A stretch of 64,000 nt of DNA from Candidatus Hodarchaeum mangrovi (GCA_016839515.1 JAEOUE010000209.1:9326-73325), one strand, 5' to 3'; counted from the first letter of the stretch, positions 322 through 57,839 are shown. A program made the numbers and translations. The notes: generated by a model from the sequence alone, not told the origin.

Positions 322-1128
322 CTAATTGAAATGAAATTCAATAGTTTTTTTCTCAGAATCAGCCCAAGACGCTCTTTTTGTTTCTACTAATAGTTTCATG
401 ATATTTTTAATGTCAGTTCCAGGTAAGGTCGACCAGCTTTGCTTCATTTGGATAATATCATATGCAGTGACCATTTCATACCCATTCTTGAATGCAAACT
501 CAAATAAATCGTCACAGTACGTTATTAGAGTCTTCCAATATATTCGTAACCGTGTTTTTTGCTCATCCCACCATTTTGCTTTGTTTATTTCTACTAAATA
601 ATCTGAAATAAGGATCAATTGAGGAATAGATAATTTCTTCTTTGTAAGTGTATTATAAAAAGGATAAACTAAGCTAATCTCTTGTAAATCAATAATATGA
701 AGATTCAGGATCCGTGCAAAATCTAAAATAAACTCACCCCAAGTGATTAACCACTGCTTTTTGTGTTCAATGTCATCTGGAACCATCCAACGCCAAGGTT
801 TATTTACCCATTGTGGTATAATCGGTTTAATTCTTGGGTCGATTTTACCAGGTTCCAATATAGGCTTTTGCAAAGTTTCGGTACTGATATCGTTCAATAT
901 AGACTCTTGAGAGGAAATTTCAGTATCAATTGTTTGATTAGATGGAGGAATTACTCTTTCTGATGAAAATGAGCTAAGATCTATTTTCTCTGTTTCAGGT
1001 TTTTCGGTTAAAGATTCATTTAATTGATTCATAACACTTTCTAAAACTTCAAAGGGTTCATTTTCTTTCTTTTTAACATCTGATTTCTCGCGTTTTCGTT
1101 GCATCTCAGCCATATACATCCAGCTCAC
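322..1128 (-). CDS. vps25: ESCRT-II subunit Vps25/EAP20 homologue with acidic N-terminal extension
   Basis: W-x2-FILDF, PFYN...KKLS and AKWWDEQKTRLRIYWKT match the tandem winged-helix Vps25 pattern; directly downstream of Vps4. Confidence 0.85.
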   Translation of the reverse strand: MSWMYMAEMQRKREKSDVKKKENEPFEVLESVMNQLNESLTEKPETEKIDLSSFSSERVIPPSNQTIDTEISSQESILNDISTETLQKPILEPGKIDPRIKPIIPQWVNKPWRWMVPDDIEHKKQWLITWGEFILDFARILNLHIIDLQEISLVYPFYNTLTKKKLSIPQLILISDYLVEINKAKWWDEQKTRLRIYWKTLITYCDDLFEFAFKNGYEMVTAYDIIQMKQSWSTLPGTDIKNIMKLLVETKRASWADSEKKTIEFHFN

Positions 1129-1152
1129 TGAACATGTACAGATTTTTGTACC

Positions 1153-2313
1153 TTATCCTCCGAATTTTTCTTTCCACTTTTCATATTCAACAAGCTCTTC
1201 AGGAGAAACAGATGGTTTAATATGAACCATAGATTGTGTGAAATCATCAATATTAGGTTTTCTGGGCTGAATTGAATGGTCTTTTAACGCCCCATCAGCA
1301 TCAAGCTCACGAATAGGATGCATTAATGCTTCACGACAGAGAAGTGCAATGTCTGCAGCAGTATATCCAGCTGTATAATCAGATAATTGACCAAAATCCA
1401 CATTAGAATCTAAAGCAACACCACGAGTGTGAATCTTAAACATAACCTCCCGTGCAGACTGATTAGGCAATCCTATATAAACTCTTCGTTCAAATCGACG
1501 CCTCATTGCTGCATCAATATCCCAAGGAGTATTTGTTGCTCCAATTGTAACAACTAATTCATCTCCAGTTCCAAATCCTTCAACTGCCTGAAGTAGCTGT
1601 GTTTTTACCCGACGCATGGCATCATGCTCGGAAGCACCCCCTCTTCTTCCAGCTAAGGCATCAATTTCATCAAAAAATATAATCGAGGGAGCTTCTTCTT
1701 CTGCACGGTCATAAAGCTCTTCAACTAACTTTTCAGATTCACCTAACCACTTACTGATCAAATTTGCAGCACTAACAGAAAAAAATGTAGAGTCCACCTC
1801 AGAGGCAACAGCTTTACACAGATAAGTTTTTCCACAGCCAGGAGGACCAAATAATAATATTCCTTTCCATGGTTTACGTGCTCCTTTAAATAAGTCAGGG
1901 CGACTCATAGGAAGAATAACTGCCTCTCTCAAGGCTCTTTTAGCTTCTATCATTCCCGCAACGTCCTCCCACTTCACATTTGGCTTTTCTCTGACAATTA
2001 CATCCGATATTGCACCTGTAATTTCATCCTCAGGCCCTGAAGATGCTGAAGAAGAAGGTGTTCCTTTTCCTTTACTTTTCCCTTCCGAGGGTTCAATTAT
2101 TCCTCTAATTTCTTTAACTCGTATAATATAAGACATTGCACGTTCGTAATATAACTTCTTCATATTTGGATCTTCTGTAAAATCTCGTAATTTATGCAGC
2201 TGCTCTGCAGCAGCTATATAGTATCGAATCGATTGATGAGATTGCCCACTTTGATCTAATTTATAGGCGATATTTGCGTTTTTTTTGGCTGCCTCAAACA
2301 ATGGACTAGACAT
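1153..2313 (-). CDS. vps4: Vps4 AAA+ ATPase with N-terminal MIT domain
   Basis: MIT-like helices (AYKLDQSG..YYIAAAEQL); EKPNVKWEDVAG; Walker A GPPGCGKT; SKWLGESEK; Walker B FFDEID; RRRFERR; Vps4_C tail YEKWKEKFG. Confidence 0.96.
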   Translation of the reverse strand: MSSPLFEAAKKNANIAYKLDQSGQSHQSIRYYIAAAEQLHKLRDFTEDPNMKKLYYERAMSYIIRVKEIRGIIEPSEGKSKGKGTPSSSASSGPEDEITGAISDVIVREKPNVKWEDVAGMIEAKRALREAVILPMSRPDLFKGARKPWKGILLFGPPGCGKTYLCKAVASEVDSTFFSVSAANLISKWLGESEKLVEELYDRAEEEAPSIIFFDEIDALAGRRGGASEHDAMRRVKTQLLQAVEGFGTGDELVVTIGATNTPWDIDAAMRRRFERRVYIGLPNQSAREVMFKIHTRGVALDSNVDFGQLSDYTAGYTAADIALLCREALMHPIRELDADGALKDHSIQPRKPNIDDFTQSMVHIKPSVSPEELVEYEKWKEKFGG

Positions 2314-2355
2314 AATGTATTCTCCTTAGATTAATCAAATTAGAAAATGAAGGAA

Positions 2356-2967: not shown

Positions 2968-2969
2968 TA

Positions 2970-3641
2970 TTAAGACCTCAATCCTTCTTCAATTTGTTTT
3001 CGCATTTCTTCCAATTTTTTCTTATCAGCTTCTTTGGTTGCAGAACTTTGAGTGCCTGTAGAGGAACTAATTGGAGAAGACACTGCTGGTTCTTTTTTTT
3101 CCTTAATAAATGATTCAGAAGCAATTTCAGCTTCTAATTCAGCCATTTGTTGAGAAATACGGTCTTCAGCTTCTACATCCATCCCAATTTCGGTAATAGA
3201 GGTATCTGTAAGTGCTTCATCCATATCTGAAACCATTTCGATTGAATCCTCTAATGCCATCATAACTTCCTCTGTTCGTTCTGGAGAAGCTGCAGCGATA
3301 TTAGCATCTATGGATGTTTGAGCATCAGATAGGGTCTGAGTAAGGGTTACATTATCTGCTGAAATATCTAGTGTATCTATCGTTCGTTGAAGATTTGAAA
3401 TTTTATTATAGCTGCTTGTTACTTGTGTTAAATATAATTCACGTCTTTTTAACGCTTGTTGAGCACCTTGTTTATTACCGCCCCTAAGTAGTGTTCGTGC
3501 AAGGTCATGTTGCTCATCTGCTTGGCGCTGATAATTTTTTATCTTAACTTCCATTTGATTAATCGTTCGTTTAAGCTTTGCCTTAGTTTCGGTTGAGCTT
3601 GAAGGTTTTTTTCCAGTTAAGAATCCTTTAATTCTTTTCAA
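2970..3641 (-). CDS. ESCRT-III, Vps20/32/60 (Snf7) class (ESCRT-IIIB)
   Basis: GNKQGAQQALKRRELY Snf7 signature; charge-bipartite coiled coil; TTG start. Confidence 0.92.
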   Translation of the reverse strand: MKRIKGFLTGKKPSSSTETKAKLKRTINQMEVKIKNYQRQADEQHDLARTLLRGGNKQGAQQALKRRELYLTQVTSSYNKISNLQRTIDTLDISADNVTLTQTLSDAQTSIDANIAAASPERTEEVMMALEDSIEMVSDMDEALTDTSITEIGMDVEAEDRISQQMAELEAEIASESFIKEKKEPAVSSPISSSTGTQSSATKEADKKKLEEMRKQIEEGLRS

Positions 3642-3856
3642 AGAAGTATCATCTCTTCTAATTGTTATTATATATAAGTCCTTAAAATATATTATATAAG
3701 TTCATGTCACTTTCAGGTAGGCTTCTTATTAAGACTTCCTATAAGTACTATATAACTCCCTTCTACAGATATGGTATATCCAAATTATGATTTTCCTCTT
3801 AATGATAATAGTAAAGACCTGTGTCCAATGATAATAATTAACATTAACGTATCAGA

Positions 3857-4591
3857 TCAAATTGCAGGGAACGAAATGGTTAATCCATCAAGGGAATCGG
3901 ATTTAATTGCAATACGCTGCTTTATTAGAGAATCTAACGCATTATTAACCCTTTCTATAGTCCATGAGGTTTTTCTCAACAATTCAGATAATCCAATCTC
4001 ACCATTATATTGAGCTGCGAGTTCTAATATCACTTGGTGATCATCAGATAGTTTTGGATCCAAAAATTCAACAATTTTTATTCCAGCTAGTTTTTTAATT
4101 GCATGTATCATTCCATTTTCTTCAAGCATCTTCAGGGCAGAATTCATATCATTTATTGAGATTGTAATCCCTTTACTTTCATCATTAAGTCGTGTAAGCA
4201 ATTCAGAAACGCTTAATAATCCTCCAGTTTGAAGCCTTGTGTTTTTCCCAATTTCTATAATTCTTAGGCTTAAATAATTCAGATAATCATCTTTTCCCTT
4301 TAATTTATCTATTATCCCTGGTTTTTTCCCTACCTCATAGATTCCAAGAGCTTGTGGAAGACCTAACTCCTCTCGAATTATCATTAGACGTTGAGCCAAT
4401 TGTGGATTTTTCTTGAAATCTCCTTCATAGGTTTTTTCCAATTTTTGAAGCTCATCATGAAGCTGATGGACTTTTTGACTTAATTCTTCAAGGGATTTAA
4501 GCGCAAGTTTTGTACCTTTTCTTTTCAATTCAGCTTCTTGTGTGATTTTCTCTTCAATTCTTCGTAATCCCATTGGTTTAGCATTCCTCAT
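3857..4591 (-). CDS. vps22: ESCRT-II subunit Vps22/EAP30 homologue
   Basis: GLRRI N-terminus, DYLNYLSLRIIEIG, TGGLLSVSEL, LSDDHQVILELA, WTIERVNNALDSL. Confidence 0.92.
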   Translation of the reverse strand: MRNAKPMGLRRIEEKITQEAELKRKGTKLALKSLEELSQKVHQLHDELQKLEKTYEGDFKKNPQLAQRLMIIREELGLPQALGIYEVGKKPGIIDKLKGKDDYLNYLSLRIIEIGKNTRLQTGGLLSVSELLTRLNDESKGITISINDMNSALKMLEENGMIHAIKKLAGIKIVEFLDPKLSDDHQVILELAAQYNGEIGLSELLRKTSWTIERVNNALDSLIKQRIAIKSDSLDGLTISFPAI

Positions 4592-4950: not shown

Positions 4951-6297
4951 ATGGTACTTGATCTTAGTTTCAGCTCAGCTCCTATTTATTGTTCATTCTG
5001 TGGTACCATGATAATTGATTCAAACTCTAAAAAATGTTTGGAATGCGAAGCTTCCTTCTGTGCTAAATGTAGTGCTAATCTTCAGATAAATGGTTCTGCT
5101 CTTCAATGTCCATGTGGATCAAATAATATTGAAGATTATGGATCAAATAATAGCAATACAGCCCAATCTCTAGAACACGTTTTTGAACTTAAACGTTCGC
5201 TTAAACAAATGGCATATAGACCAGTGGTGGCCCTTAAAAGAACAGGTCAGTTAGAATTACGCCTCCGATCTCTTCGAAAACAGTTCTTAATCCCACGTCA
5301 TCATTTAGACAAGATTTTCTTAGAGACAAAAAAAATTGAAAATTTCATTTTGGAGGAGTTTTTCTCTTATTCAGAAAAATTACATCGTATATATCGTTCT
5401 GTTCTTGGATTCGATTCAGGATTCTCCGATCTTCGAAATATTTCAATGCAATTCACTCTTTTTGAAAAGCAAATTACAAGTTTTGACCAAACCGTCCAAA
5501 CCAAACTCGATCCTATTCAAGATTTAATTCACGAACTTGAAACTATATGTAATTCGTTTGAAGACATGGCAAAAAAATTATCGAGTTGTTTTGATATATT
5601 CTTCCTAGTTCCAGGAGAACTAGGGATTGGATACTTTTCAGATATTGATCTTAAGAAAAATAGAAGCCGTAAGAAAACAATTGACCTTGCTATTACTACT
5701 GATCGTATTGTGATGCTTCAAAATAAACGTTATAAAGTGTTTAGTAATAAAGCAATTATTTTTGATGAATTTCCTCCTGAAGATTTAATTGATGTGCAAA
5801 AATCGAATTCAGGATTCTTTAAACGAGATGAATTGTCAATAACGACAATCCAGCAGGATTACATACTTCGGGCTGAGTCTACTATCTTATTACGTATCTT
5901 TGATTCACTTCAAGTAAGTTATTATGGACGACCAAGTGAGTTATATATATATGAACCTTTTCGGGACTGGTCTTCAGAAAATTATCAAGAAAAAATATTA
6001 AATGCTTTAAATTTTCAGATAGATTCCAGTAGAGATGCAAAAATTCATTCTGAAACACCAAACCAACATGATAAAGATCCAGAATTCGTGATTGGTGTTT
6101 TGCAAGATAGACTTCGTGATCTAAGAATTCGAAAACTAGCAAATGAAAAAGCTTTGCAGGAGTTGAAAGAAGGAAGAAAAAAAGTCCATAGTCGCGAATA
6201 TTTCGATCTCGTAAGACAATTTGAGCTGGAATTAGCAAAATTGAATGAGGAGATTACAGAATTACTAATCAGAACAGGAAAAACAAATATTTTATAG
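4951..6297 (+). CDS. Uncharacterised ESCRT-locus protein: 8-Cys Zn finger, coiled coil, PH-like domain, C-terminal helical hairpin
   Basis: CSFC..CLEC..FCAKC..CPC; heptad region at ~aa 70-210; LAITTDRIVML...LIDVQK..GFF..ELSITT PH-like pattern; C-terminal hairpin. Confidence 0.75.
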   Translation: MVLDLSFSSAPIYCSFCGTMIIDSNSKKCLECEASFCAKCSANLQINGSALQCPCGSNNIEDYGSNNSNTAQSLEHVFELKRSLKQMAYRPVVALKRTGQLELRLRSLRKQFLIPRHHLDKIFLETKKIENFILEEFFSYSEKLHRIYRSVLGFDSGFSDLRNISMQFTLFEKQITSFDQTVQTKLDPIQDLIHELETICNSFEDMAKKLSSCFDIFFLVPGELGIGYFSDIDLKKNRSRKKTIDLAITTDRIVMLQNKRYKVFSNKAIIFDEFPPEDLIDVQKSNSGFFKRDELSITTIQQDYILRAESTILLRIFDSLQVSYYGRPSELYIYEPFRDWSSENYQEKILNALNFQIDSSRDAKIHSETPNQHDKDPEFVIGVLQDRLRDLRIRKLANEKALQELKEGRKKVHSREYFDLVRQFELELAKLNEEITELLIRTGKTNIL

Positions 6298-6300
6298 ACT

Positions 6301-6930
6301 TTATAGATTGGTTAATTCCCGTCTGAAATTTGATAACCAACGGGACGCCTGTAATTCAAGTTTTTTAAGCTCATCAGTCTTTAATAATTGACCTGGTTTT
6401 TGGCGATCCATCCAACCAATCCATTGACTTATATCTTGAGTTACCCAATGATCTTTTCCATATATTTTAAGATTAGTTAATATAGATGCTAATTCATCTA
6501 AATATGGTAATATTCGATCTACTGTTGCAATTGCCTCTAAATGTAGTAAATCTAGGAGTTCGATTGTATTGGCCACAAAATCAGCAGCAATTGCTGGCAA
6601 TCTTTTTATTTGGCTATAATCGATTTGATTCAACGGATTATCAGCATCACCTTCAGTTCTTCGTACTTTTTCTAAACCGAAAGGAAATTTGGACTCCATT
6701 GCCTCTTTTTTGATGAAATCATCCAAATTGAAATGGTATTGGTCTAGTGCTGCCCGAGTTTCAACAATACTGGATAAAAGGTTTTTGAATTGCTTATGAT
6801 AGATATTTGGATCAATTTCACCTTTCTCAAATGTTCGTGAAAGAAGATCAAGTGTACCAATATCAGCATAAAGTCTAGCTTCTAGTTCCCATCGTTTCTT
6901 TAAATTCGGTGGAAAGGTCATTTGTGTCAT
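6301..6930 (-). CDS. vps28: ESCRT-I subunit Vps28 homologue
   Basis: ARLYADIGTLDLLSRTFEKGEIDPNIY and FVANTIELLDLL..VDRILPYLDEL match the Vps28 N and C domains; coupled to vps23. Confidence 0.9.
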   Translation of the reverse strand: MTQMTFPPNLKKRWELEARLYADIGTLDLLSRTFEKGEIDPNIYHKQFKNLLSSIVETRAALDQYHFNLDDFIKKEAMESKFPFGLEKVRRTEGDADNPLNQIDYSQIKRLPAIAADFVANTIELLDLLHLEAIATVDRILPYLDELASILTNLKIYGKDHWVTQDISQWIGWMDRQKPGQLLKTDELKKLELQASRWLSNFRRELTNL

Positions 6931-6931
6931 C

Positions 6932-7666
6932 TTATCCTATATAATCAAGTTCTTTTCGGATTAAGTATAAGTCTTTGGAATATTTTTTATACAGACGGGA
7001 ATATTCAAAAATTGATATTTCTCCAGCTGCATAACGATCCTCAAGAGAGGCTAATAATTCAGAAATTGCTATACGTTCTGATTCTAAATCGTCCTTGGTT
7101 GATCTTTGGGGTCGTTTTTCCTCGCCTAAACTTTCAGTTTGAACCATCTGTCGTGCGCGCAATCTCGCTAGCTCTTCTTCTTTTTCCTGTAGAGTTTGGT
7201 TTAAATTGATGAGTTCTTTGCGTAACGAATCGGTCTCTGCATTAACTGTAGGTTCGATATAACGAGGAGGTGACTCTGTGATTTTGATTACAGTATCCCG
7301 TACGGATCTAGCAGTTTCACCACGTGGAGCAGGTGGAACACGGGACATTAGATTTTTCAATGCTATTATAACTTGATATAAATGAAATTCCGCCCGCCAA
7401 TTTTCTAAGATTCGTAATTGAACAAATCCATCCTCATCGATATTTGGATGATCCATCCAACCCACTGCTGTGACAACAGGAGGAACATTAGGAAAATATT
7501 CAGGTAGAAATATCTCAAAGGTGAACATATTTCGACCACGACTCGTTGTATATGTCAAAGTGCCTTGCCATTTGGCAAGAGAATCCTCAACAGGATTGAA
7601 ACCTGATGCAGCAGTGTTGGAATAAACTAATTGTGCTTCACGCGCGAGTATAAAGTCTCTATCCAT
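6932..7666 (-). CDS. vps23: ESCRT-I subunit Vps23/TSG101 homologue (UEV + coiled coil + steadiness box)
   Basis: E2-like fold IFLPEYFPNVPP..HPNIDEDGFVQL lacking catalytic Cys; coiled coil; steadiness box LEDRYAAGEISIFEYSRLYKKYSKDLY. Confidence 0.92.
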   Translation of the reverse strand: MDRDFILAREAQLVYSNTAASGFNPVEDSLAKWQGTLTYTTSRGRNMFTFEIFLPEYFPNVPPVVTAVGWMDHPNIDEDGFVQLRILENWRAEFHLYQVIIALKNLMSRVPPAPRGETARSVRDTVIKITESPPRYIEPTVNAETDSLRKELINLNQTLQEKEEELARLRARQMVQTESLGEEKRPQRSTKDDLESERIAISELLASLEDRYAAGEISIFEYSRLYKKYSKDLYLIRKELDYIG

Positions 7667-7891
7667 TTTTTTAACTCCTAACCTCGGTTTTATTTACAAT
7701 ACCAATCTGAGGAGGTTTTTTTCGAGTATTTTAAACGATTCAGATCATGTATATTTAATTTAATGAACCTTAAAAAAGACTCACAATAAGGAATGGGAAT
7801 ATTCCTAATTATCCTTTGTTAAGGATTTATTACCTCACAGGTTTCTTAATACATGAAATATTTAATTTTTTTTCTTCAATGAATATTTAAT

Positions 7892-9133
7892 TTAATTTTT
7901 CTTTTTTAAAGGATTTGCTAGGAAATTTAATAATTCTTGTCCTAAAAGTTCAAATGCATATTCGATATTTAACCCTGTCTTTGCACTTGTTGGGAGATAA
8001 TAGATTTTAAATCCTCGATATTGCTTTGAAATTTGTGATAAACGACCAACAAAAATTCTTGCTTTTTCTTCAGAGACACAATGAATTGTACCATCGCAAA
8101 GATCAGTTTTATTTCCAAGAATCACAAGTGGGACAGGACCACGTCCATTACTCTTCCAGAGCTCATTCATCCATAAAACAATATTCTGAAAACTATCAGG
8201 TCTGGTAACATCAAATACGGCAAGTGCTCCAATTGCTGTAGTATAATAAGCCATACGAACTCCATCAAACCGTGGTTGCCCTGCTAAATCCCAGATTACG
8301 TATTTAATTCTTTTCCCACCAGCATAAATCAAAGATGATTTTTTTACTGCCAAATCGGCCCCAATAGTCATTTGATAATCATGTCGAAAGCCTTCTCCAA
8401 GATAATGTCTACGAATGGATGTTTTCCCAACAGCACCATCACCAATTAATATTATTTTTAGAGTGTGCTCTTCTTGGACAAAATTGGCTTTTGCAGACTC
8501 TATTAACTGCTCTAATGCTCTACTTAATTCCTTATTAATTGAAGGTATTTGCTCTGGATAAAGCTTCAAGACTTCAACAATCTGGAAAGCTAAAGGAGCT
8601 GCTTTATCACGTGGTACAAATTTAGAGGTTATGATTGAAATAATAAAATCTTGAATGATGAAGAAATGTATCGTTTGATTTTCAAGGGAAAGTTCCTCAA
8701 GCATTTTACCTAATTTGTGATGAACATAATTATTAATTGCATTTAAGATAAAACCAGTAGTTTCTTTATAATCGTTGCTAACCTCAGAGGGAAATTCAAA
8801 TAAACATTTGCCATTCTGTTTGTAGCAGGAAATGAAATGAATTTCTTCTACTTTTTCTGGTTTTTCTAACCCAAATTTGCGAAATTCCTCTATTTCTTTT
8901 TTACTAGCCATTTCCCCCTCTGAATAAACAGTTTGCAATAAATTTAAATAATCGCTACGTCCTGACAATGCTTCTTCCAAATCAACTTGAATTTTTAACT
9001 GAAACTCTTCCATTTCACTGGCAATTGATTCGTCTAAAACTCGGTCTTCTAGAGATTGTTTCTTTTTTCTTTGTAAAGTATTAAAGGACGAGAGTTTTTC
9101 TTTCATTGACCGAATTCTCCGGAGTTTTTTCAA
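7892..9133 (-). CDS. Longin-domain / Rab-like small GTPase fusion
   Basis: G1 GDGAVGKT, G2 YQMTIG, G3 WDLAGQ, G4 NKTD, G5 TSAK; RabF-like IGADL/KYVIW/YYTTA/VFDVT; central longin-like segment. Confidence 0.85.
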   Translation of the reverse strand: MKKLRRIRSMKEKLSSFNTLQRKKKQSLEDRVLDESIASEMEEFQLKIQVDLEEALSGRSDYLNLLQTVYSEGEMASKKEIEEFRKFGLEKPEKVEEIHFISCYKQNGKCLFEFPSEVSNDYKETTGFILNAINNYVHHKLGKMLEELSLENQTIHFFIIQDFIISIITSKFVPRDKAAPLAFQIVEVLKLYPEQIPSINKELSRALEQLIESAKANFVQEEHTLKIILIGDGAVGKTSIRRHYLGEGFRHDYQMTIGADLAVKKSSLIYAGGKRIKYVIWDLAGQPRFDGVRMAYYTTAIGALAVFDVTRPDSFQNIVLWMNELWKSNGRGPVPLVILGNKTDLCDGTIHCVSEEKARIFVGRLSQISKQYRGFKIYYLPTSAKTGLNIEYAFELLGQELLNFLANPLKKKN

Positions 9134-9288
9134 GCGAATTCTATTTTTAATTTAAGAAATGCACTTAAGCTCTTTAAGCGTTTGTTAATCAAGAATTCAC
9201 TTCTCTCTTAAAATCTTACAGTTCAATTAATCAATATTGATATGACCAAGATTTATTCCACAATATATTCCAAATTAAGTGTTAAACT

Positions 9289-10356: not shown

Positions 10357-10582
10357 TTTTTTAAGCTTTTTCTTAGATAAAGTTGGGGTATCTTTTGGTT
10401 AATTTCCTAAAAGCTTGAACTTGATAATTTTAATTTTATCCTGTTTTTTTCAATTTCACACAGCTTTTAAATAACACAGTTCTTAACAAATGTAATATTG
10501 ATCTTATATTTTTAACTCAAAAATTATTGCTATTAACCATTCAAATGCTGTCTAAGATTTATTTACAGGTGAAGATTTCCCA

Positions 10583-11329
10583 ATGTCAGAATCTGAATCA
10601 TTAGTTTGCCCTAATTGTAGTGAACGAAGTCCTGCAGGATATATTCTTTGTCCTTATTGTGGATTCGATTTGACTAAGATTGTTAAAGCCGCCCAACGAG
10701 TCCGAATAACTTTTAAAGAAAGCTTTTCTCGTATTTGGAGAGGATTTTTTGACCCTCGTCAAAGTAAAGGACTATTCAATGAGGTTGGGGCTAATCCTGA
10801 CAGAAGAGGGGCAATTTTAACTTTAATACTGGTATCAATGGCTTATGCGAGTCGAATTGGAGTTTATGCTATTAAAGTCTCAAGCACCACCTGGCATGAT
10901 TTTCATTTCTGGTATGCTTTATTTTTTCCATTTGTTGTCTGGCCTGCCTTCTTTTTATTAGCTCTTTTTGCTTGGTTTATCCTTAGTACTGCTATATGGC
11001 TTCTGGCAAAAACTTTAGGGGGAAAAGCAGGATATCGGGAAACAATGAGCGTTGTTGGCTACTCAGTAAGTCCACTTATTTCTGGATCACTCATCATCAG
11101 TCTTATTATTGTTCTTATCGGACCACCAATCAGTAGTATAACCTCAATAACTTCAGATCAATTCATACTTTTCGAATTTTTATATCTCCCATTCATTGCT
11201 TTGGCTGCTTACCATTGTGGAAACGGATTAAGGGCATCCCATCTTCTAAGCGAGCCATATTCCTACTCAATTAGTGGTTTAATGGCATTATTATTTATTA
11301 TCTTCTATCTACTCCCCTTGATACTGTAA
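10583..11329 (+). CDS. Yip1-family membrane protein with N-terminal zinc ribbon
   Basis: CPNC...CPYCG; about 5 TM helices; LAKTLGGKAGYRETMSVVGYSVSP Yip1 motif. Confidence 0.85.
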   Translation: MSESESLVCPNCSERSPAGYILCPYCGFDLTKIVKAAQRVRITFKESFSRIWRGFFDPRQSKGLFNEVGANPDRRGAILTLILVSMAYASRIGVYAIKVSSTTWHDFHFWYALFFPFVVWPAFFLLALFAWFILSTAIWLLAKTLGGKAGYRETMSVVGYSVSPLISGSLIISLIIVLIGPPISSITSITSDQFILFEFLYLPFIALAAYHCGNGLRASHLLSEPYSYSISGLMALLFIIFYLLPLIL

Positions 11330-11383
11330 AACATTCGTCGACTTAGAATTTGAAAGTGAATATTCAATCAATTGATGAAATAA

Positions 11384-12379
11384 TTAATTCAGATATATTT
11401 TAAATTTTAATGGCATTGGGATTGAAGGATCAATCACCCGAAATATTTCTCCGTTATGAAATTCAGTTCCCATTAGTGCATCTGTTATAACCATATGTTG
11501 GGTTTCGTACAGGATTTTTATTTCAAGCCCAAGATTAAAAGAATATCTTAATTGTTCAATAAAATCAGAAAATCTTTGATCTTTAGAAGAATAAACTGGT
11601 ATAATGTCTAAATGATAGGTATCGGAGCATACAAAACATGTTTTTCTCCTTTTGAGTGGTACAGATGTGAATTGACCAGATTCTCCGTCCCAAAATAAGA
11701 AATTATTCATTGTTGGGATGCCATTGATAATTTTTAAGGCCTCTTGTGCCATTAATCCTCCAATGACTAACGAGACACTGGATACAGATGGGATAAATTT
11801 TTTTTCTTCAACCACCTCCCGAATTTCCTTTCTTCCCTCACCAAAAGGTGTACAAGCTTTTTGTAGCTCCTGTTCTGGGATTAAAGATTGACATTCTAAA
11901 CACGGGGTATGATAAGGAATGACAACTTGGATATTACCGAGGAATCCATACATTCCTCCAGATATCAAAGGAATTTTTGCTTTCACTGTGAACGCATTTA
12001 ACCATCTACGAACTTTAAATGTATCTAATCCTTCAACTATAACATTAGATGTTGTTAAAAGATCATGAGGTACTTTTTCAATTGCATTTTTTATTACTTC
12101 AATCTCAATAGAAGGATTTATGGCTCTCAGTGCTTTAGCGGCAACATTTACCTTCGGTTTTCCAACATCATCCTCATAATAGAAAAGTTGCCGATTAAGG
12201 TTACTTACTTCAATTGTGTCAAAATCTATCAAAATTAATTTTCCTACTCCAGCCATTGCAAGTGAAGCAGCAACAACTGTTCCTAGAGCTCCAAGACCAA
12301 CAATAGTAACTGTACTTTCTTTTATTCTTGTTTGGTCCCAATTTTCAATCAATAATTGACGTGCATAGCGATCAGTCAT
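11384..12379 (-). CDS. Ubiquitin-activating enzyme E1 (ThiF/UBA family)
   Basis: RYARQ, GLGALG, SNLNRQ, Zn motifs CLEC/CFVC, catalytic-Cys motif KACT, C-terminal UFD-like region; follows ubiquitin. Confidence 0.92.
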   Translation of the reverse strand: MTDRYARQLLIENWDQTRIKESTVTIVGLGALGTVVAASLAMAGVGKLILIDFDTIEVSNLNRQLFYYEDDVGKPKVNVAAKALRAINPSIEIEVIKNAIEKVPHDLLTTSNVIVEGLDTFKVRRWLNAFTVKAKIPLISGGMYGFLGNIQVVIPYHTPCLECQSLIPEQELQKACTPFGEGRKEIREVVEEKKFIPSVSSVSLVIGGLMAQEALKIINGIPTMNNFLFWDGESGQFTSVPLKRRKTCFVCSDTYHLDIIPVYSSKDQRFSDFIEQLRYSFNLGLEIKILYETQHMVITDALMGTEFHNGEIFRVIDPSIPMPLKFKIYLN

Positions 12380-12423
12380 ATATTAGGCCCGCGGATGCAC
12401 GTCTTTCTCTGAATCTTAAATTT

Positions 12424-12663
12424 CTACCTTTTCCCACCAGTGGTTCGTGTAATCATGTACAGCTTATCATGTTCTTGAATCCCAGCTGTCTTTAAAGTTT
12501 CGCTCTCATCAAGTTGTTTTCCTTGAAAGACTAGAATAACGGTTCCTGGAGGGATTCTATTTTCACTAGCAACTCTTCTTTTAATTGCTGCTATAGAATC
12601 AGTCATTTCACATTCAAGAGGTATTTCTCTACCGCCAATTGCCTGAACAATAGTGATTTGCAT
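12424..12663 (-). CDS. Ubiquitin (pro-form, GG followed by KR)
   Basis: MQITI...IPPGTVILVFQGKQLDESETL..GIQ..RTTGGKR; ATG at 12663 is the likely start (GTG at 12672 possible). Confidence 0.93.
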   Translation of the reverse strand: MQITIVQAIGGREIPLECEMTDSIAAIKRRVASENRIPPGTVILVFQGKQLDESETLKTAGIQEHDKLYMITRTTGGKR

Positions 12664-12800
12664 GTTCTTCACTCAAATATTCGCATTGTAAAAGATTTGT
12701 GAGTTACACTTCATCTCTGCCTTTTAAAATATATGGAATGGGGTACACAAATTATATACTAAATAACTCTATCGAATTTTTTCTAATCGAAAGGATAGAT

Positions 12801-13589
12801 TTAATCATCTTCTGGTTCAATAAAACTGATTCCATCATTTGTAATTTCATAGCGTAGAGTTTTAGTCGTGTGATTAGTACCACGCATCTTAGTGATTCGA
12901 AGGATTCGCATCATTTCCCCACGAACAGAAAGCATATCAAGATGAAAAATAGAATCGGCAATATACTCTTCTCCAAACAAGGTATGATCAGAGGTACTTG
13001 ATAATTCTGATATTGCTATTGTAGTAACGTTTAAGGCAGCAATATTTGCCAAAAATCCAGTTGCTAATTTTCTTAAAAAACCATAGTCATTTCCATAATC
13101 ATAAAATCTAAATGCAGCTAGGGGATCTATTACTATTCGTTCAATTTTCTTTTCCTCTACTTTTTGGGATATTAAATAAAAAATTTTATGTAAGAAAGTA
13201 GGTAATGATGTCTCATCATAGGGAACCCCTTCTACATCCAACATCAATTCAGTATCCTCACTATACGAAAGACTATCAGGATCCCATAATTCCCATCCAG
13301 ATGGCGTAAAGTCAAGCATGATTACTTTTTCAGGTTCTGCAAAATAATTGTGATCGAAAAAAGAAAAAGAACTTGCATCTCGTCGTATAGCCCATGGTGG
13401 TTCTTGCATTGCTACTAATAATCCATTTTCATTTCGACGAGCTCCATCAAAGAGAAAATGTAATCCAAAAATTGTCTTACCTGCTCCTGCAGGTCCTATT
13501 AGCAAATTAGTAGTTCCTTTGATAAAACCACCTTGAGTATAAGCATCAATAAATGGTATTCCTGTTGTTACGCGCACACGTTCAAACAA
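12801..13589 (-). CDS. KaiC/RAD55-family ATPase (single domain)
   Basis: RVTTGIP, GPAGAGKT, RIVID, EEYIADSI, ITKMRGT. Confidence 0.92.
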   Translation of the reverse strand: MFERVRVTTGIPFIDAYTQGGFIKGTTNLLIGPAGAGKTIFGLHFLFDGARRNENGLLVAMQEPPWAIRRDASSFSFFDHNYFAEPEKVIMLDFTPSGWELWDPDSLSYSEDTELMLDVEGVPYDETSLPTFLHKIFYLISQKVEEKKIERIVIDPLAAFRFYDYGNDYGFLRKLATGFLANIAALNVTTIAISELSSTSDHTLFGEEYIADSIFHLDMLSVRGEMMRILRITKMRGTNHTTKTLRYEITNDGISFIEPEDD

Positions 13590-13757
13590 TGAATCTCACT
13601 CTCAAAAATCAGAATATTTTATCTCTAAGTGAAACCTACGGTGAAATATTATTCATTACCCATTCAGAATATTAATCTCATATAAAAGGTAATTTGTATG
13701 GTATTATAATCTTCTATCTATTTTTTTAATTATTATCATATACTATAGAAATCAAAA

Positions 13758-14321
13758 TCACTTTTGATAGTTAATATTCTGCTTACTAGCTTCTAGCTGT
13801 TCAATAAAGTACCGAAATGCTGATTCCAAATTTTCACCACTTCTTATTCCACCAGGATCAGCTGCTACTGTTCCAAAAATAAAGTAGTTTCTCTTTTGAA
13901 GTTTTTGAAGTAAAAAATGCCTTTTAAAAAAGTCTGGATATAGAGCATTTGGTAAATCTTGCTTATTAGCTATAATAAGAATCGGTATATTTTCAGAAAT
14001 AAGTTCCAACGCATCTTGTAGCCATTGTTCATCATATTTAAAATCACGACGGGAACTGTCAATAACAAAGACCAATCCATCTGCGTTTTTGACAAATCTT
14101 TCATGATAACGCATATCTAGGAATTTCCTCTGACCCCCAACATCAATTAAACTGATAACTGATCCATCTAAAACAACATGACTAATTCCGAAAGCAATTG
14201 TAGGCCTGATGTTGCTAGGTGGAGGATAACCATGCTCAAGATAAAATGCGATGGAAGATTTACCTACACCACTAGTTCCTAATAAAACAACTGAATAAAT
14301 TGTTTTAGATGGTAATTCCAT
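13758..14321 (-). CDS. Arf-related small GTPase
   Basis: GTSGVGKS, PTIAF, DVGGQ, ANKQDLP; no Gly2. Confidence 0.88.
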   Translation of the reverse strand: MELPSKTIYSVVLLGTSGVGKSSIAFYLEHGYPPPSNIRPTIAFGISHVVLDGSVISLIDVGGQRKFLDMRYHERFVKNADGLVFVIDSSRRDFKYDEQWLQDALELISENIPILIIANKQDLPNALYPDFFKRHFLLQKLQKRNYFIFGTVAADPGGIRSGENLESAFRYFIEQLEASKQNINYQK

Positions 14322-14554
14322 ATATATATTATCCTGTCTGTTGCCTTTTTCAAGAAAGAAGCAAAAAAATCTAGATTTTAGAGACGAAACATTAAGTCAA
14401 AGATTTATACGTTTTAATCAGGTTTTTAAGTTTAAAAAACTGACTAAATATTTTTGTACCGATAAATCACAAAAAAAGCTTTTTTAGGTATACTTCTAAC
14501 TTCATTTCACAAGATTTATGAGTTTGTATTAGAAAAAATAATATGTGAATTTTA

Positions 14555-14947
14555 ATGCCTGATGATACTCGAGAAATCGAGATTGAATCTCTGAAAACTC
14601 CAAAAGGTGATGTTCCAACAATAAAAGGATTGGAAACAGCGTTGAATGCAACTTATAATGATTTCAACAGTATAAATACTTCGTTATCACAAATTAATAA
14701 ATCTATTACAAGTATTTTTGAAAAATTGGAATTCTATAATACTCAAATGAAAGAATTAAGTGAATCAATTACAAAATTAGTTGTTTATTTAGCAAAATTG
14801 GAAGCATCTATTGATAATACCCAAGATCTAACTCAAAAGCACTTATTCATAGAAAAAACTGATTTAATAGCTTTAAAAAATGATTTAGCTGGAATACTAG
14901 AACAATTACAACATGAGGTGTTCAGAAAATCCATTCAAGAAAAATAA
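14555..14947 (+). CDS. Hypothetical coiled-coil protein
   Basis: 130-aa ORF with long heptad repeat; first gene of an apparent 3-gene operon. Confidence 0.7.
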   Translation: MPDDTREIEIESLKTPKGDVPTIKGLETALNATYNDFNSINTSLSQINKSITSIFEKLEFYNTQMKELSESITKLVVYLAKLEASIDNTQDLTQKHLFIEKTDLIALKNDLAGILEQLQHEVFRKSIQEK

Positions 14948-15246
14948 TTATAAAAAAACGCACAATTGAAAAAGCACCTTCAAAAAAAACTATTTTTTTA
15001 CCAAAATCAGGATTTTTAAATTCTTTAAATAATGATATAAAATTAAAATCTAGGACTATTGGAGACTGGAATCCCTTTTCTCAACCTCAACAATGTATGA
15101 TTTGTTGGAAGCCTGTTGAAGTTGAAGGAAAAGATATACGGAATCATATGCAATGTAGGCATTGCCATCGAATAGCTCACAGAGATCATCTCCTTCAATG
15201 GCTTGAAAAAAAAGATTATTGTCCTGTCTGCAAAGGAAAATTGTGA
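14944..15246 (+). CDS. RING-finger E3 ubiquitin ligase candidate (missed by ORF track; non-AUG start)
   Basis: Open frame 14917-15246 encodes ...CMICWKPVEVEGKDIRNHMQCRHCHRIAHRDHLLQWLEKKDYCPVCKGKL*; no ATG/GTG/TTG upstream of the first Cys; start uncertain (ATA 14944 or ATC 14929). Confidence 0.85.
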   Translation: MIIKKRTIEKAPSKKTIFLPKSGFLNSLNNDIKLKSRTIGDWNPFSQPQQCMICWKPVEVEGKDIRNHMQCRHCHRIAHRDHLLQWLEKKDYCPVCKGKL

Positions 15247-15248
15247 GA

Positions 15249-15698
15249 ATGAACGTTAATCTACCTGGACTTATTAAAGAAATCATTTCAGATATTGAAA
15301 ATCTCTTGAATAAAATGAATTTTGATCGAGGCCTAGTAAAACCAGTTAAAATTAGAAGATCACATAATAATATTATTGTAACATGGAATATATTCCCTTC
15401 TTCAACTCATATTGGCATATATACAAATCTTCAAGAAATAATTTCAAAAAATTTGTTTAATATCAATGGAGAAATTTTATCATACAATATTACGGAGGGT
15501 TTAATTACTGATCATACTCATCATACCTTTAATGAATTTTTGATCCATCAAGGATCTAATTGGGATATCTATCTCTATGATCCTGAAATTTTTATATATA
15601 TACGGTTGATTATTGAGTCGAATATAAAAACGGTGGATAAAAAATGGATTTCGCTTGATATTGACGTCATTGAGAAATCAGCTTGGTTTTTAGAATAA
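15249..15698 (+). CDS. Hypothetical protein
   Basis: ATG 2 nt after the RING stop; 149 aa; no recognisable motif. Confidence 0.65.
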   Translation: MNVNLPGLIKEIISDIENLLNKMNFDRGLVKPVKIRRSHNNIIVTWNIFPSSTHIGIYTNLQEIISKNLFNINGEILSYNITEGLITDHTHHTFNEFLIHQGSNWDIYLYDPEIFIYIRLIIESNIKTVDKKWISLDIDVIEKSAWFLE

Positions 15699-15709
15699 TT
15701 TTTTCTGAA

Positions 15710-16657
15710 TTATATGATCTTCCATCTTAGTGAATGAGATTCATATTCAACTAAACCTTCATTTTCTAACTCTCTGAGAAAAGCTGTGGCAGTTGTTTCT
15801 TCAACCCCTAATTCATCAAAAGGTGTGTTCCAGTCAATACCGAGAATCTTACAAAATTCCTCCGCTATATAACGAATTTTTGCCTCCCCAACACTTAACA
15901 AGACATCATAAATAGTATCTTTTGTGTGTTTATGCTCAAAAGTCAGATTATGGACGTATAAGTCAAATGGTTTTGGTACAGGACTTTGGTGAGTTGGACA
16001 AATATTCTCTGTTTTGATTTTACTCAATAGGTCCAAGACTTTGGCTCGTTTCATAGAGCTTCCTGTATTATCGATGAAAAAAGCAGAGTAATTTTCTGGA
16101 TAAATGTTTCCTTCATCTCCGATGAATGTACATTCTCCCCTGTAAGCTTGAATAATTATGGAATCGGCAGAATGTCCACCAGTATGTTGTAATATTAATT
16201 CCTCCCCACCAAGATCAAGGGTTTCACTTTTATTAAAAGTATATACTAATTCCTCCTTTACTTTACCAATTTTGGATAAGAGAGAAGACTTCATTGCTAA
16301 ATTAAATTTTGAAACAAAAGGAAATTGCTTCTCTAAAATGAACTTTTGGCCCTCTTTCAAAGCTTCTAATCCTAATTCATGAACCCAAACTTGTGGTTTT
16401 ATTTCAGCAAAAGCATTCATACCAGCCCAATGATCAGGATGAGTATGAGTTAAAATTAGATATGAAATTTCTCCCGGATCCCGACCTGCTTTCTTAATGT
16501 ACTTGATGATCTCCTTTCCAATCGAATGTGAAGGAATATCGATAACTGCGATCTTTTCATCACCTAATATTAAATAACTAGAGAATAATTCGCCTTTTTT
16601 TCCTTTGTCACCAATTACTTGATATATTCCTGATACCCATTCAATAAATTCTACCAT
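15710..16657 (-). CDS. Metallo-beta-lactamase-fold hydrolase
   Basis: THTHPDH, TGGHS, GD and PTH motifs; C-terminal wHTH-like tail. Confidence 0.9.
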   Translation of the reverse strand: MVEFIEWVSGIYQVIGDKGKKGELFSSYLILGDEKIAVIDIPSHSIGKEIIKYIKKAGRDPGEISYLILTHTHPDHWAGMNAFAEIKPQVWVHELGLEALKEGQKFILEKQFPFVSKFNLAMKSSLLSKIGKVKEELVYTFNKSETLDLGGEELILQHTGGHSADSIIIQAYRGECTFIGDEGNIYPENYSAFFIDNTGSSMKRAKVLDLLSKIKTENICPTHQSPVPKPFDLYVHNLTFEHKHTKDTIYDVLLSVGEAKIRYIAEEFCKILGIDWNTPFDELGVEETTATAFLRELENEGLVEYESHSLRWKII

Positions 16658-17169
16658 TGAATCTCACCACAGATTTTATTTATTTAGATCCATTCAATAA
16701 ATTTGATTATTAAGTTTTTGCGATTGGGGAGAAAAAATGTCGAATAAATGATAGATTTTACAATTATTTCTTCTAAACGTTTCTTGAAGGTCAAAAAAAA
16801 TGATTTAAAGTCTCTATTATCATAGACAATTTTAAAATAGTATAAAATCAAATATCTGAATAAAATTTTTTATTTAAAAATAAATAAAATAAAAGTTTAG
16901 ATTTAATTATAGCTTGAAATTGATTATTTCAAGAACATTCATAAAATTCTCTCGTTTTCTGAAGAACCTACTCATCTTTTTCCTTTAAATTCTTTTTAAT
17001 CCATAAAAGTAACTACATAAAGAATTTAAAATAGGAATCTTTTAATAAAACATCTTACTATTTAGCTTTTTAGGACGCTTCAATTCAAATCATTACCTAT
17101 TTCTAATTATATGATTATATAAAGATTTAATTACCTAAAAAAAATTAATTCAAAGGATGAGTAAGGATT

Positions 17170-18186
17170 ATGAATATTGATGAAATAGTTGATAAGAAAT
17201 ATATACCAGTTATTGATCCTACTGCTCCTGATTCCCCAGCAGAGAAGGGAGCTAATGCATTTCTTGCTGAGTATGGAGGAATTGTTGAGGAAGTCGCTCT
17301 AGTCTGTAAAAAGGAGGATGGATTAGTCACATATCGCTCAGGTGCTGCACCAAGTGATCGTCATTATGAAAATTTCTTTACAGACTTCACAGAACTAGCA
17401 AATGATCTTGGAATGCGAACACATGCAATTTCCTATGCTTTTGGAGATTCTTATCTAGGACAAGATCCAAATTATTCAATAGGAAAATCAGATGGAACAC
17501 GAATACATGATTATATCGATCCTGCAGTAGAAGGTTATTGGAAACACATGATTTATATCGCACGAGAAGTAGCTCGTCAACCTATCCAAAGTTTAATTTT
17601 CCAAGAGTTCCTATATCCAAGACAAGAATATTCATTTACTCGAAGATCCATTCGTAAATTTTCAGAAATCTCAGGAGTATCGCTTGATACAACTTACATT
17701 GATATCCAAAGAGATCCACAAATACAAAGAATGTTTGAGGAATGGAGATCAGAATTAATTACAACTGCTTTTCGTGAAACTCTTGAAATGGCACGTTCAG
17801 AACGTCCAGAACTTGATGTTGGCATGATTATTCCTGTAGATCCAGAAACAGATTGGAGTGAGGGATTCTACAGGCATTTTGGGATCAATCTTGATAAGAT
17901 AATTGAAATTAGTGGGTATATAATCTATCATTTAATGCCTTATTCGCCAATGTATCCTGAACCCAATACCCCAGGATGGGATTCTTTAATTCGTGCCATT
18001 AGAAGCTCGAGATTGTACGAGGAAAGCGGATATAAAAAAGCTTTATTCATATGGGGTTTGTCAAATGAAGAAGATGTTGAATGGATTGATAATCTTAAAC
18101 GTGAAGTGAGGGCAGAAAGAATTTTTGCCCGTCTAGAGCATCCACCGAAATACACTGTTAAACGAGAAATTCACCGCGGGGTATAA
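17170..18186 (+). CDS. Putative glycoside-hydrolase-like TIM-barrel protein (GHL10/DUF4015-like)
   Basis: KxxDGLVTYRS, YIDPAVEGYW, FQEFLYP, FEEWRSELIT, LMPYS pattern. Confidence 0.55.
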   Translation: MNIDEIVDKKYIPVIDPTAPDSPAEKGANAFLAEYGGIVEEVALVCKKEDGLVTYRSGAAPSDRHYENFFTDFTELANDLGMRTHAISYAFGDSYLGQDPNYSIGKSDGTRIHDYIDPAVEGYWKHMIYIAREVARQPIQSLIFQEFLYPRQEYSFTRRSIRKFSEISGVSLDTTYIDIQRDPQIQRMFEEWRSELITTAFRETLEMARSERPELDVGMIIPVDPETDWSEGFYRHFGINLDKIIEISGYIIYHLMPYSPMYPEPNTPGWDSLIRAIRSSRLYEESGYKKALFIWGLSNEEDVEWIDNLKREVRAERIFARLEHPPKYTVKREIHRGV

Positions 18187-18207
18187 AAGCATAAAATACC
18201 AGAAATT

Positions 18208-18678
18208 CTAATGCTCTTGGCTCCAATGAGCATATTGTTTTACATACTCAACAGCTTGTTTTTTAAAACTAATTGGATCTCTTTTCCACATTCTTGCAGC
18301 GGCACCGTTCAAGGGATCATCTGGATTTGGGGCATTTAATAGAAAGCGTATTGTTTCTATTACTTGAACTAGACTATATGCAGGACTCCATTCTTTCCCA
18401 AGGATACCAACACAAACTTTCTCTTTGAATATATTTACGTGCCATATGGGTGTTTTAAAACGAATATGGGGTGGTTCATATGGATAACGGCGTGGTATCT
18501 TAATTTCGATTAAAAAAACTCCTCCTTCATATAGTCCAGATCCTAAGATTTCTCCACGCCAATGGGTTAAATCATTATTCACTGTTCGGAAGGTAGGTTG
18601 TTCTCTTGTTAGTTCTTGGGCCTCAATAGCTAAACGGTCAAGCCATTCTTCTTCAGTAAGCATTTTTAAAATCGTCAT
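18208..18678 (-). CDS. Ubiquitin-conjugating enzyme E2
   Basis: YEGGVF, YPYEPP, TPIWHVNI, catalytic VCVGIL, WSPA, PNPDDPLN. Confidence 0.95.
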   Translation of the reverse strand: MTILKMLTEEEWLDRLAIEAQELTREQPTFRTVNNDLTHWRGEILGSGLYEGGVFLIEIKIPRRYPYEPPHIRFKTPIWHVNIFKEKVCVGILGKEWSPAYSLVQVIETIRFLLNAPNPDDPLNGAAARMWKRDPISFKKQAVEYVKQYAHWSQEH

Positions 18679-20489: not shown

Positions 20490-20491
20490 AC

Positions 20492-21538: not shown

Positions 21539-21621
21539 AATACTACTAAAACAACATTTGATATTTAAATATTTAAGTAAAATGAAAATAAAAGCAAATA
21601 AAAATTATGCTTTGTAGGAAA

Positions 21622-57812: not shown

Positions 57813-57839
57813 AAAAAAACCTTCTGGCTTTTCAAATCA

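Follow-up and report, generated by a model that had tools for sequence, protein, structure and literature searches.

Which of the genes embedded in an archaeal ubiquitin-ESCRT locus work with its machinery, and which simply lie beside it? [quoted passage not shown] A 64,000-nucleotide stretch of Candidatus Hodarchaeum mangrovi (GCA_016839515.1, JAEOUE010000209.1:9326-73325; hereafter the window) carries at positions 322-18678 a ubiquitin-ESCRT cluster that also contains genes for a Rab-like small GTPase, a Yip1-domain membrane protein, a PAP2 lipid phosphatase-family protein, and KaiC-like and Arf-like proteins. We read the stretch as a Hodarchaeales-type ubiquitin-ESCRT cluster and lean, modestly, toward the view that the embedded Yip1 protein and small GTPase probably work with it. 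The Yip1 protein and the GTPase switch inside the cluster are concrete, clonable candidates for the missing ESCRT membrane-targeting step.

Family assignments were based on a Pfam profile search and a listing of open reading frames (ORFs) across the window, and the Pfam matches confirmed the ESCRT, ubiquitin, Yip1, PAP2, Rab-like, KaiC and Arf genes that an initial annotation of this DNA had placed at 322-18678. For comparison, we used a relatives set of 61 genomes in families f1-f7, 39 of them outside genus g1, the Hodarchaeales-type genus of the window. On the minus strand lie Vps25 of ESCRT-II (322-1128; PF05871, E 3.6e-13), which is kept in every genus locus reaching it, the Vps4 AAA ATPase with MIT and Vps4_C domains (1153-2313; AAA 8e-41, Vps4_C 1.5e-7), two ESCRT-III genes of the Snf7 family (2356-2967 and 2970-3641; PF03357, 1e-13 and 6.1e-11), a Vps22/36-like EAP30 gene of ESCRT-II (3857-4591; PF04157, 4.5e-22), Vps28 of ESCRT-I (6301-6930; PF03997, 8.6e-12), found in 60 of the 61 genomes, and UEV-Vps23 of ESCRT-I (6932-7666; UQ_con 1.6e-14, UEV 9.1e-5), in which an HPN motif is present and is followed by no catalytic Cys. 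The ubiquitin genes on the same strand are E1 of the ThiF family (11384-12379; PF00899, 1.5e-63), ubiquitin (12424-12672; PF00240, 3.8e-14) and E2 (18208-18678; UQ_con 7.3e-35), whose catalytic Cys is present. Together with a RING frame described below, ESCRT-I, -II and -III, Vps4, ubiquitin, E1 and E2 complete the full set that defines an Asgard ubiquitin-ESCRT cluster, and eleven ubiquitin/ESCRT families inside 18 kb are far beyond chance. The coordinates also reveal two co-directional arrays, PAP2>GTPase>Vps23>Vps28 with gaps of 155, 225 and 1 bases and Arf-like>KaiC>ubiquitin>E1 with gaps of 168, 128 and 44 bases, both of which would be compatible with co-transcription.

Such a locus is not new in itself. 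Asgard ubiquitin-ESCRT gene clusters have already been described (Hatano et al. 2022, PMC9192718; bioRxiv 10.1101/2023.07.25.550441), as the initial annotation had said, and those clusters share with the present one ubiquitin, E1, E2, RING, UEV-Vps23, Vps28, Vps22, Vps25, two ESCRT-III genes and Vps4. Hatano et al. drew the locus of a member of this genus, B3_Heim, colouring the ubiquitin and ESCRT genes only, and the text of that paper contains neither 'GTPase' nor 'Yip1'; the 2023 preprint independently counts Yip1 and a Rab-like GTPase among the members of the UEV-Vps23/ubiquitin cluster of Hodarchaeia, and thereby already names two of the extra genes. Experiments on Asgard homologues reported in these sources indicate that UEV binds ubiquitin and that ESCRT-I, -II, -III and Vps4 interact (PMC9192718), and that an E1-E2-RING cascade can ubiquitylate UEV-Vps23 (10.1101/2023.07.25.550441). 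The question is therefore about the extra genes of a further example of a known cluster.

The evidence that carries our reading concerns Yip1. The gene at 10583-11329 on the plus strand encodes a membrane protein with an N-terminal Zn ribbon and a Yip1 domain (PF04893, 44.3 bits against a cut-off of 28.6), and it stands beside Vps23-Vps28 in 16 of the 16 genus loci that reach it. Of the 39 relatives outside the genus, 7 have Yip1 no more than 10 kb from Vps28 or E1, namely both f2 genomes (G022 and G023), four of five in f5 (G026, G030, G034 and G054) and the single f6 genome (G044), so that with the genus's own family counted Yip1 is linked to Vps23-Vps28 or to E1/ubiquitin in 4 of the 7 families. 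The arrangements vary with lineage. The order Yip1-Vps23-Vps28 occurs in G023 and G044, RING-Yip1-E1-x-GTPase piece in G022, ubiquitin-E1-Yip1 in G034, and E2...ubiquitin-E1-x-Yip1 followed by a glycoside-hydrolase-like (GH-like) gene in G054, while G026 and G030 have Yip1 within 8 kb of E1/ubiquitin; these lineage-specific differences argue against simple inheritance of one block.

A pattern scan built on the Yip1 alignment, with one genome per species, returned 48 loci; it rests on one peptide pattern and is not exhaustive. Among its 29 non-genus loci, 12 carry ubiquitin, E1, E2, Vps23, Vps28 or the GH-like gene in the flank, six of them from genomes outside the relatives set; a further 7 have a RING match only, and 10 have none, among which are five contigs shorter than 4 kb and one spurious 25-residue match. 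A Wukongarchaeum record has the order Vps22-Vps28-Vps23-helical-RING-ubiquitin-GH-like with Yip1 4.4 kb further, and locus L108 reads GH-like ... SAWF gene-Yip1-ubiquitin-RING-helical-Vps23-Vps28, where the SAWF gene adjoining Yip1 and the helical gene have counterparts in the window (see below). The suggestion in the initial annotation that Yip1 would be linked to ESCRT or ubiquitin genes in related genomes thus holds in three further families and in the Wukongarchaeum record. Across families, Yip1 keeps the Zn ribbon C-x2-C-x10-C-x2-C without variation. Its spacing fits that of NZF-type ubiquitin binders, but the second Cys is followed by SE, whereas NZF-type binders have TF at this position. 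In f4, where Yip1 is not near ubiquitin or ESCRT genes, a gene about 3.3 kb away from Yip1 encodes a TPR protein whose C-terminus carries a RING-type finger (L062:10806-12068, L064:10823-12046).

The genome holds two Yip1-domain genes, and the second, on contig C238 (L134:7950-11233), also encodes an N-terminal Zn ribbon. It is the last gene of an array that, apart from an opposite-strand helix-turn-helix (HTH) gene, is co-directional and comprises a Rab-like GTPase (182 aa), the HTH gene, two Roadblock/LC7 genes and Yip1. Of 19 genus loci, 17 preserve the order Roadblock-Roadblock-Yip1, and the other two are cut at Yip1 by contig ends; the GTPase neighbour of this module was checked in this genome only. 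Both Yip1 genes lie at most 2 kb from a Ras-like gene, of which there are 31 in 4.0 Mb, an arrangement that random scatter would yield about 1 time in 1000 by a rough estimate. The unit of Yip1, roadblock/longin domain and GTPase appears twice in one genome, unfused on C238 and fused in the window, and this second Yip1-Roadblock-Roadblock-Rab-like module supports the existence of a Yip1-GTPase unit. The Roadblock genes of C238 are about 90% identical across the genus, and the C238 Yip1 is only 32-42% identical.

The fused form in the window is the gene at 7892-9133 on the minus strand, which encodes a 413-aa protein with a longin-fold region at about 95-215 and a Rab-like GTPase at 219-413. 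Pfam places a Ras-family domain at residues 226-401 (E 2.1e-35), and the sequence contains the G motifs, with Rab-like switch regions, read as GDGAVGKTS, TIGADL, WDLAGQ, NKTD and SAK. Among the 31 Ras-like ORFs of the genome, this is the sole one with a long N-terminal extension. The "longin-Rab" label of the initial annotation is thus confirmed for the Rab-like part by Pfam, and for the longin part at the fold level only. Pfam gave no longin or roadblock profile match for the N-terminal half, and a profile of this part run against PDB sequences returned nothing relevant, but an AlphaFold2 model (pLDDT 70.8) shows the order beta-beta-alpha-beta-beta-beta-alpha-alpha, and Foldseek matched the model to the longins of sigma-adaptin, zeta-COP, Mon1/Ccz1, VAMP7 and Ykt6 (E 3e-5 to 2e-3, TM by target 0.45-0.63) and also to TRAPP; roadblock/LAMTOR folds matched less well. 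The predicted fold of the N-terminal half is accordingly supported as a longin fold at this level. A word-index search of a large protein collection with the longin part found 7 proteins, all of about 400 aa and with Ras domains.

How these parts might act together can be proposed as follows. The E1-E2-RING cascade would mark membrane or cargo proteins with ubiquitin, UEV-Vps23 and a PH-domain subunit encoded at 4951-6297 would read the ubiquitin mark and the membrane, ESCRT-II would nucleate ESCRT-III, and Vps4 would recycle ESCRT-III. The Yip1 protein would be the membrane site, and possibly the substrate, where the longin-Rab switch meets the ubiquitin/ESCRT-I machinery, so that the state of the GTPase would gate where ESCRT gets recruited. 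The Arf-like/KaiC pair, which is co-directional with ubiquitin-E1, may be an order-specific regulator.

Whether gene order in the genus speaks for this scheme was examined by fetching stretches of at most 20 kb surrounding Vps28 from 20 genus genomes and searching these by tblastn with all window proteins. The longin-Rab gene is next after Vps23 in 18 of the 18 genus loci reaching it; the KaiC, Arf-like, helical and (E/N)SAWF genes are present in 14 of 14; and the MBL-fold (metallo-beta-lactamase), GH-like, E2 and 99-aa genes are present in 12 of 14 fetched stretches and lie beyond an insertion in the other two. With 20-kb flanks in 10 genus genomes, however, collinearity runs on upstream into PAC2 (9/10) and RadA, RimK-like and ribosomal protein S2 genes (10/10 each), and downstream into MetRS (9/10) and further. 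Since it extends into housekeeping genes on both sides, gene order within the genus is uninformative on function, and this flank analysis ruled out same-genus synteny as functional evidence. The locus is also not free of local change: in G007 (L007), Vps22 and the PH-domain gene are separated by an insertion of about 2.6 kb, and G001 (L019) has insertions of about 2 kb after ubiquitin and about 6 kb before the MBL gene. Between the 99-aa gene and MetRS of the window itself, four ORFs including a radical-SAM gene (19770-22638) are present in none of the 10 genus genomes and form a private insertion.

Besides the silence of genus gene order, several observations weigh against a joint function of Yip1 and the GTPase with the cluster. 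Yip1 is linked to Vps28 or E1 in none of the 18 genomes of f3, the 12 of f4 or the one of f7, several of which are fragmented. Of 14 control genomes, 7 also gave matches to the Pfam Yip1 family, E. coli and B. subtilis among them, and a published source acknowledges Yip1 in all three domains of life, bacteria included (PMC13734099); a Yip1 domain is thus common in prokaryotes without Rabs, and the name implies nothing about trafficking. The longin part was not found beyond the genus, with profile matches in 19 of the 61 genomes, all of them g1. With 31 Ras-like ORFs in the genome, one of them within 18 kb is not rare. The GTPase lacks a prenylation Cys, its C-terminus being NPLKKKN with no tail Cys in any of 17 orthologues, and the N-terminus of the Arf-like protein is not amphipathic. 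In this genome the RING gene carries a frameshift, and no RNA runs covering 6900-16800 were found. Linkage of the Rab-like GTPase to ESCRT or ubiquitin genes, which the initial annotation had expected in relatives, likewise stands inside the order and not beyond it. The GTPases near ESCRT genes in f3 (L023-L030) were considered as longin-Rab orthologues and rejected, their best matches in this genome being paralogues on other contigs; one f2 contig, in G022, has at its end, next to E1-Yip1, a GTPase piece of 47% identity.

A bolder extension of our reading is that the Zn-ribbon-Yip1 protein has long belonged to the Asgard ubiquitin/ESCRT-I module as an integral member, serving as a membrane platform on which a longin/roadblock-GTPase switch docks, and kept next to E1/ubiquitin or Vps23-Vps28 in Hodarchaeales, two other Heimdall-group families and Wukongarchaeia. 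We regard this extension as tentative and, on balance, rather doubtful. If it were true, GTPase-gated, ubiquitin-dependent ESCRT recruitment, which is the logic of endosomal sorting, would be older than eukaryotes, and the GH-like protein, whose gene keeps company with ubiquitin, would count as one more component that has gone unrecognised.

The GH-like gene enters the argument at this point. It encodes a 338-aa GHL10/DUF4015-like protein (17170-18186, plus strand) with protein atlas scores of 0.94-0.96 to GHL10/GHL13/DUF4015 clusters; the GHL10 profile matches 3 of 12 family members, at best with 2.5e-5, and weak PDB profile matches include Cwp19. The gene was found in 58 of the 61 genomes, lies at most 11 kb from E1 in all five f5 genomes, and stands beside ubiquitin, E1 or Yip1 in L078, L084, L085, L108, L114, L117, L125 and L131. 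Most members outside the genus carry a CFCxxCRR motif, which the genus copies are without.

The most serious rival to a joint function is that all the extras, that is, Yip1, the GTPases, KaiC, PAP2, MBL and the GH-like gene, are passengers with unrelated functions in a slowly rearranging housekeeping neighbourhood. The collinearity with housekeeping genes on both sides, the insertions inside the locus in G007 and G001, the variable or absent PAP2 gene, the abundance of Ras-like ORFs and the unlinked Yip1 in 31 of 31 genomes of f3, f4 and f7 are what it would lead us to expect. It accounts poorly, however, for Yip1 recurring by E1/ubiquitin or Vps23-Vps28 in four families and the Wukongarchaeum record in varied orders and orientations, for the GH-like gene recurring by ubiquitin/E1 in f5 (5/5) and in the L108, L114, L117, L125 and L131 lineages, and for the combination of Yip1, roadblock/longin domain and GTPase occurring twice in one genome. 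We consider it unlikely for the extras as a whole. For PAP2 and the MBL-fold gene singly, accessory or passenger status is the most likely interpretation.

PAP2 also speaks against the opposite extreme. The gene for this membrane protein, at 9289-10356 on the minus strand (PF01569, 1e-24, 87.2 bits against a cut-off of 27.2), occupies a slot that is filled variously in the genus: among the 19 genus loci including the window, 7 have a type A gene on the window's strand with 44-56% identity, 8 have a type B gene on the opposite strand with 29-33% identity, and 4 have none, the two types being about 30% identical to each other. In the four loci where PAP2 is missing, the GTPase gene directly adjoins the Yip1 gene in divergent orientation at a distance of 185-560 bases, and no other copy of either type was found in the genome. 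The expectation that PAP2 would be linked to ESCRT or ubiquitin genes in relatives therefore fails, the linkage being confined to the genus.

The proposal that all the extras form one proto-endosomal pathway, in which GTPases define a compartment, PAP2 supplies a lipid signal, ubiquitin marks cargo and ESCRT cuts, can point to the confinement of all the genes to 18.4 kb in an order kept in the genus, to the co-directional arrays, one joining the GTPase with Vps23-Vps28 and the other the Arf-like gene with ubiquitin-E1, and to a PH-domain ESCRT-I-type subunit that suggests lipid reading, but it is quite improbable, given that PAP2 is linked in the genus only, as two types on opposite strands, and is missing in 4 of 19 loci, that PAP2 enzymes act on lipid phosphates in general and no finding here connects this one with a signalling lipid, that the longin-Rab fusion is confined to the genus and the Arf-like orthologues to the order, that both GTPases are without the features that anchor their eukaryotic namesakes in membranes and that no gene here implies an internal compartment. 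From the full pathway advanced by the initial annotation, the ubiquitin-ESCRT core and the Yip1 link gained comparative support; the compartment-identity and lipid-signal parts are conjectural, and the PAP2 gene meant to supply the latter is restricted to the genus and variable or absent there.

Our preferred reading, a cluster with which Yip1 and the GTPase probably work, has partial parallels in known systems. Like eukaryotic Yip1/YIPF proteins, which bind Rabs, the archaeal protein has a multi-span Yip1 domain and is encoded beside a Rab-like GTPase, twice in this genome; it differs in its N-terminal Zn ribbon, and the archaeal GTPase is without a prenylation Cys, on which eukaryotic Yip1-Rab binding depends. 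The pairing of a roadblock/longin fold with a small GTPase is shared with MglB-MglA and Ragulator-Rag, the unfused version being that on C238, and the Foldseek matches of the longin half include LAMTOR, MP1-p14 and Asgard roadblock structures. Rag GTPases, however, have a C-terminal roadblock domain, whereas here a longin domain precedes a Rab-like G domain in a single fused protein, and in contrast to MglB the best fold matches are the longins of sigma-adaptin and zeta-COP. With eukaryotic ubiquitin-dependent multivesicular body sorting (ESCRT-0/I/II/III, Rab5/Rab7, PI3P), the locus has in common a UEV that reads ubiquitin, a PH-domain lipid reader, ESCRT-II/III with Vps4, and a GTPase gene close by; unlike that system, it has no ESCRT-0, PI3-kinase or FYVE match above chance (best E 0.048), its PAP2 is not a phosphoinositide enzyme, and it gives no sign of compartments.

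Compared with the described Asgard clusters, the present analysis adds the longin fold on the GTPase, Yip1 linkage beyond Hodarchaeia, the Arf-like/KaiC pair upstream of ubiquitin-E1, the GH-like gene recurring beside ubiquitin, the variable PAP2 and the frameshifted RING of this genome. Literature searches of the running text of papers returned no report of the longin fusion of this GTPase, of Yip1 linkage outside Hodarchaeia, of a GH-like gene in ubiquitin clusters, of the Arf-like gene paired with KaiC, or of the module on C238; longin fusions of Arf-like proteins do appear in two papers on Asgard Arf proteins, which mention no ESCRT linkage. The comparison separates extras that are conserved across lineages (Yip1, the GH-like gene and the helical-RING pair) from those that are not (PAP2 and MBL), and it shows the GTPase as a longin fusion in a genome where an unfused Yip1-Roadblock-GTPase module is also encoded. 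Two new leads stand out as the most useful, namely the linkage of Yip1 across lineages and the doubling of the Yip1-roadblock/longin-GTPase module.

The PH-domain gene invoked above (4951-6297, plus strand) encodes a 448-aa protein and is one of six ORFs that the earlier listing had left out, together with 14555-14947, 15219-15698, 15710-16657, 17170-18186 and 18909-19208. The 448-aa protein has no Pfam match. Eight Cys in four pairs are kept in 16 genus orthologues and form one N-terminal Zn module, which in an AlphaFold2 model (pLDDT 76.4) is followed by a helical region at 65-212, a PH-like domain at 225-325 with seven strands and a helix, and a C-terminal helical hairpin at 378-442; protein atlas leads were to bPH_3 and GRAM/Vps36 clusters. 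The modelled layout matches, at the level of architecture, Znr_PH_CC_SB, which is proposed as a likely Asgard ESCRT-I subunit (Makarova et al. 2024, PMC11188069). Zn fingers, a PH domain, a coiled coil, a C-terminal helical hairpin and a position among ESCRT-I/II genes are shared, whereas the protein of that paper is described with three Zn ribbons and the present one has its eight Cys in one N-terminal module. Two other identities were rejected. Foldseek matches to DH-PH RhoGEFs, which would suggest guanine nucleotide exchange factor activity, had TM 0.2-0.3 and rmsd of about 20 A and thus indicate no more than a helical bundle plus a PH fold, and profile matches of the Zn module to FYVE, C1 or RING were weak (best E 0.002-0.05). 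A 467-aa ORF adjoining Yip1 in f6 (L039) matched the protein weakly (hhalign probability 28.8%).

The RING E3 of the initial annotation proved to be a small frame at 14917-15246 on the plus strand (feature 14913-15246), with a zf-RING_2 match (E 5.9e-6) of 26.9 bits, just below the cut-off of 27.3; two orthologues scored 21.7-22.1 bits. The 338-aa ORF at 17170-18186 was rejected as the RING E3, being without the Cys/His pattern and having GH-like leads instead. The RING Cys/His pattern is kept in 15 of 15 genus copies, and in 14 genus loci the orthologues have 71-121 codons and a start that overlaps or follows the stop of the upstream gene for a 130-aa helical protein. In the window, no ATG, GTG or TTG precedes the first Cys in the RING frame; the orthologous ATG, at 14913, misses the frame by one base, and a run of seven A lies at 14952-14958. 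Contigs, as distinct from raw reads, from three runs of three studies show the same letters at this site with no indel, and the contig of a fourth run breaks there. The frameshift is therefore not a one-off assembly slip, and assembly error was discarded as its cause; the RING gene of this genome would be either a recent pseudogene or rescued by slippage.

The helical protein upstream (14555-14947, plus strand) has a KTPKGxVPTxKGL motif and is kept beside RING across the genus and in L108, L114 and L117; it may correspond to asCOG005522, a cluster protein that the 2023 preprint (10.1101/2023.07.25.550441) mentions as uncharacterised. The motif is common to the lineages (L108:14669-15046, L114:3183-3656). 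Downstream of RING, a conserved protein ending in (E/N)SAWF is encoded at 15219-15698 on the plus strand, with a likely start at 15249 and orthologues in 14 genus loci.

The remaining extras are of narrower distribution. The Arf-like GTPase (13758-14321, minus strand; PF00025, 1.2e-19, 70.9 bits) has the Arf motifs DVGGQ and NKQD but neither an N-terminal amphipathic helix nor Gly2, about 9 residues preceding the first strand and residue 2 being Glu. Its neighbour is a KaiC-like single-domain ATPase (12801-13589, minus strand; PF06745, 2.7e-41, 141.9 bits). Orthologues of the Arf-like protein are 66-73% identical in f1 (19 matches on locus contigs) and 46-53% identical in f2, where both genomes have the Arf-like gene and then KaiC at a contig end; matches elsewhere do not exceed 38% identity. 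The linkage of this pair that the initial annotation had noticed is thus kept only in the order, and no clear Arf-like orthologues lie outside f1 and f2.

The ubiquitin ends in GG-KR and so needs C-terminal processing; no JAB/MPN genes were found in the locus, and three are present elsewhere in the genome. An MBL-fold hydrolase (15710-16657, minus strand; PF00753, 2.5e-16), linked only within the genus, lies inside the locus. The block edge is marked by a conserved 99-aa protein (18909-19208, plus strand) with 62-71% identity in 12 genus loci. Further along the window, 57162-60275 contains a Roadblock/LC7 gene (57840-58310), a 216-aa ORF and a second KaiC-like gene (59556-60275), and the remaining window consists of translation and ribosome genes, including L28e and S26e. 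Among the relatives, a UEV-Vps28 fusion was observed in f3, as reported in the literature for Heimdallarchaeia, and in f7 a CDC48-type double AAA ATPase and an HTH gene (L040:12148-14358) lie between the ESCRT-III genes and Vps4.

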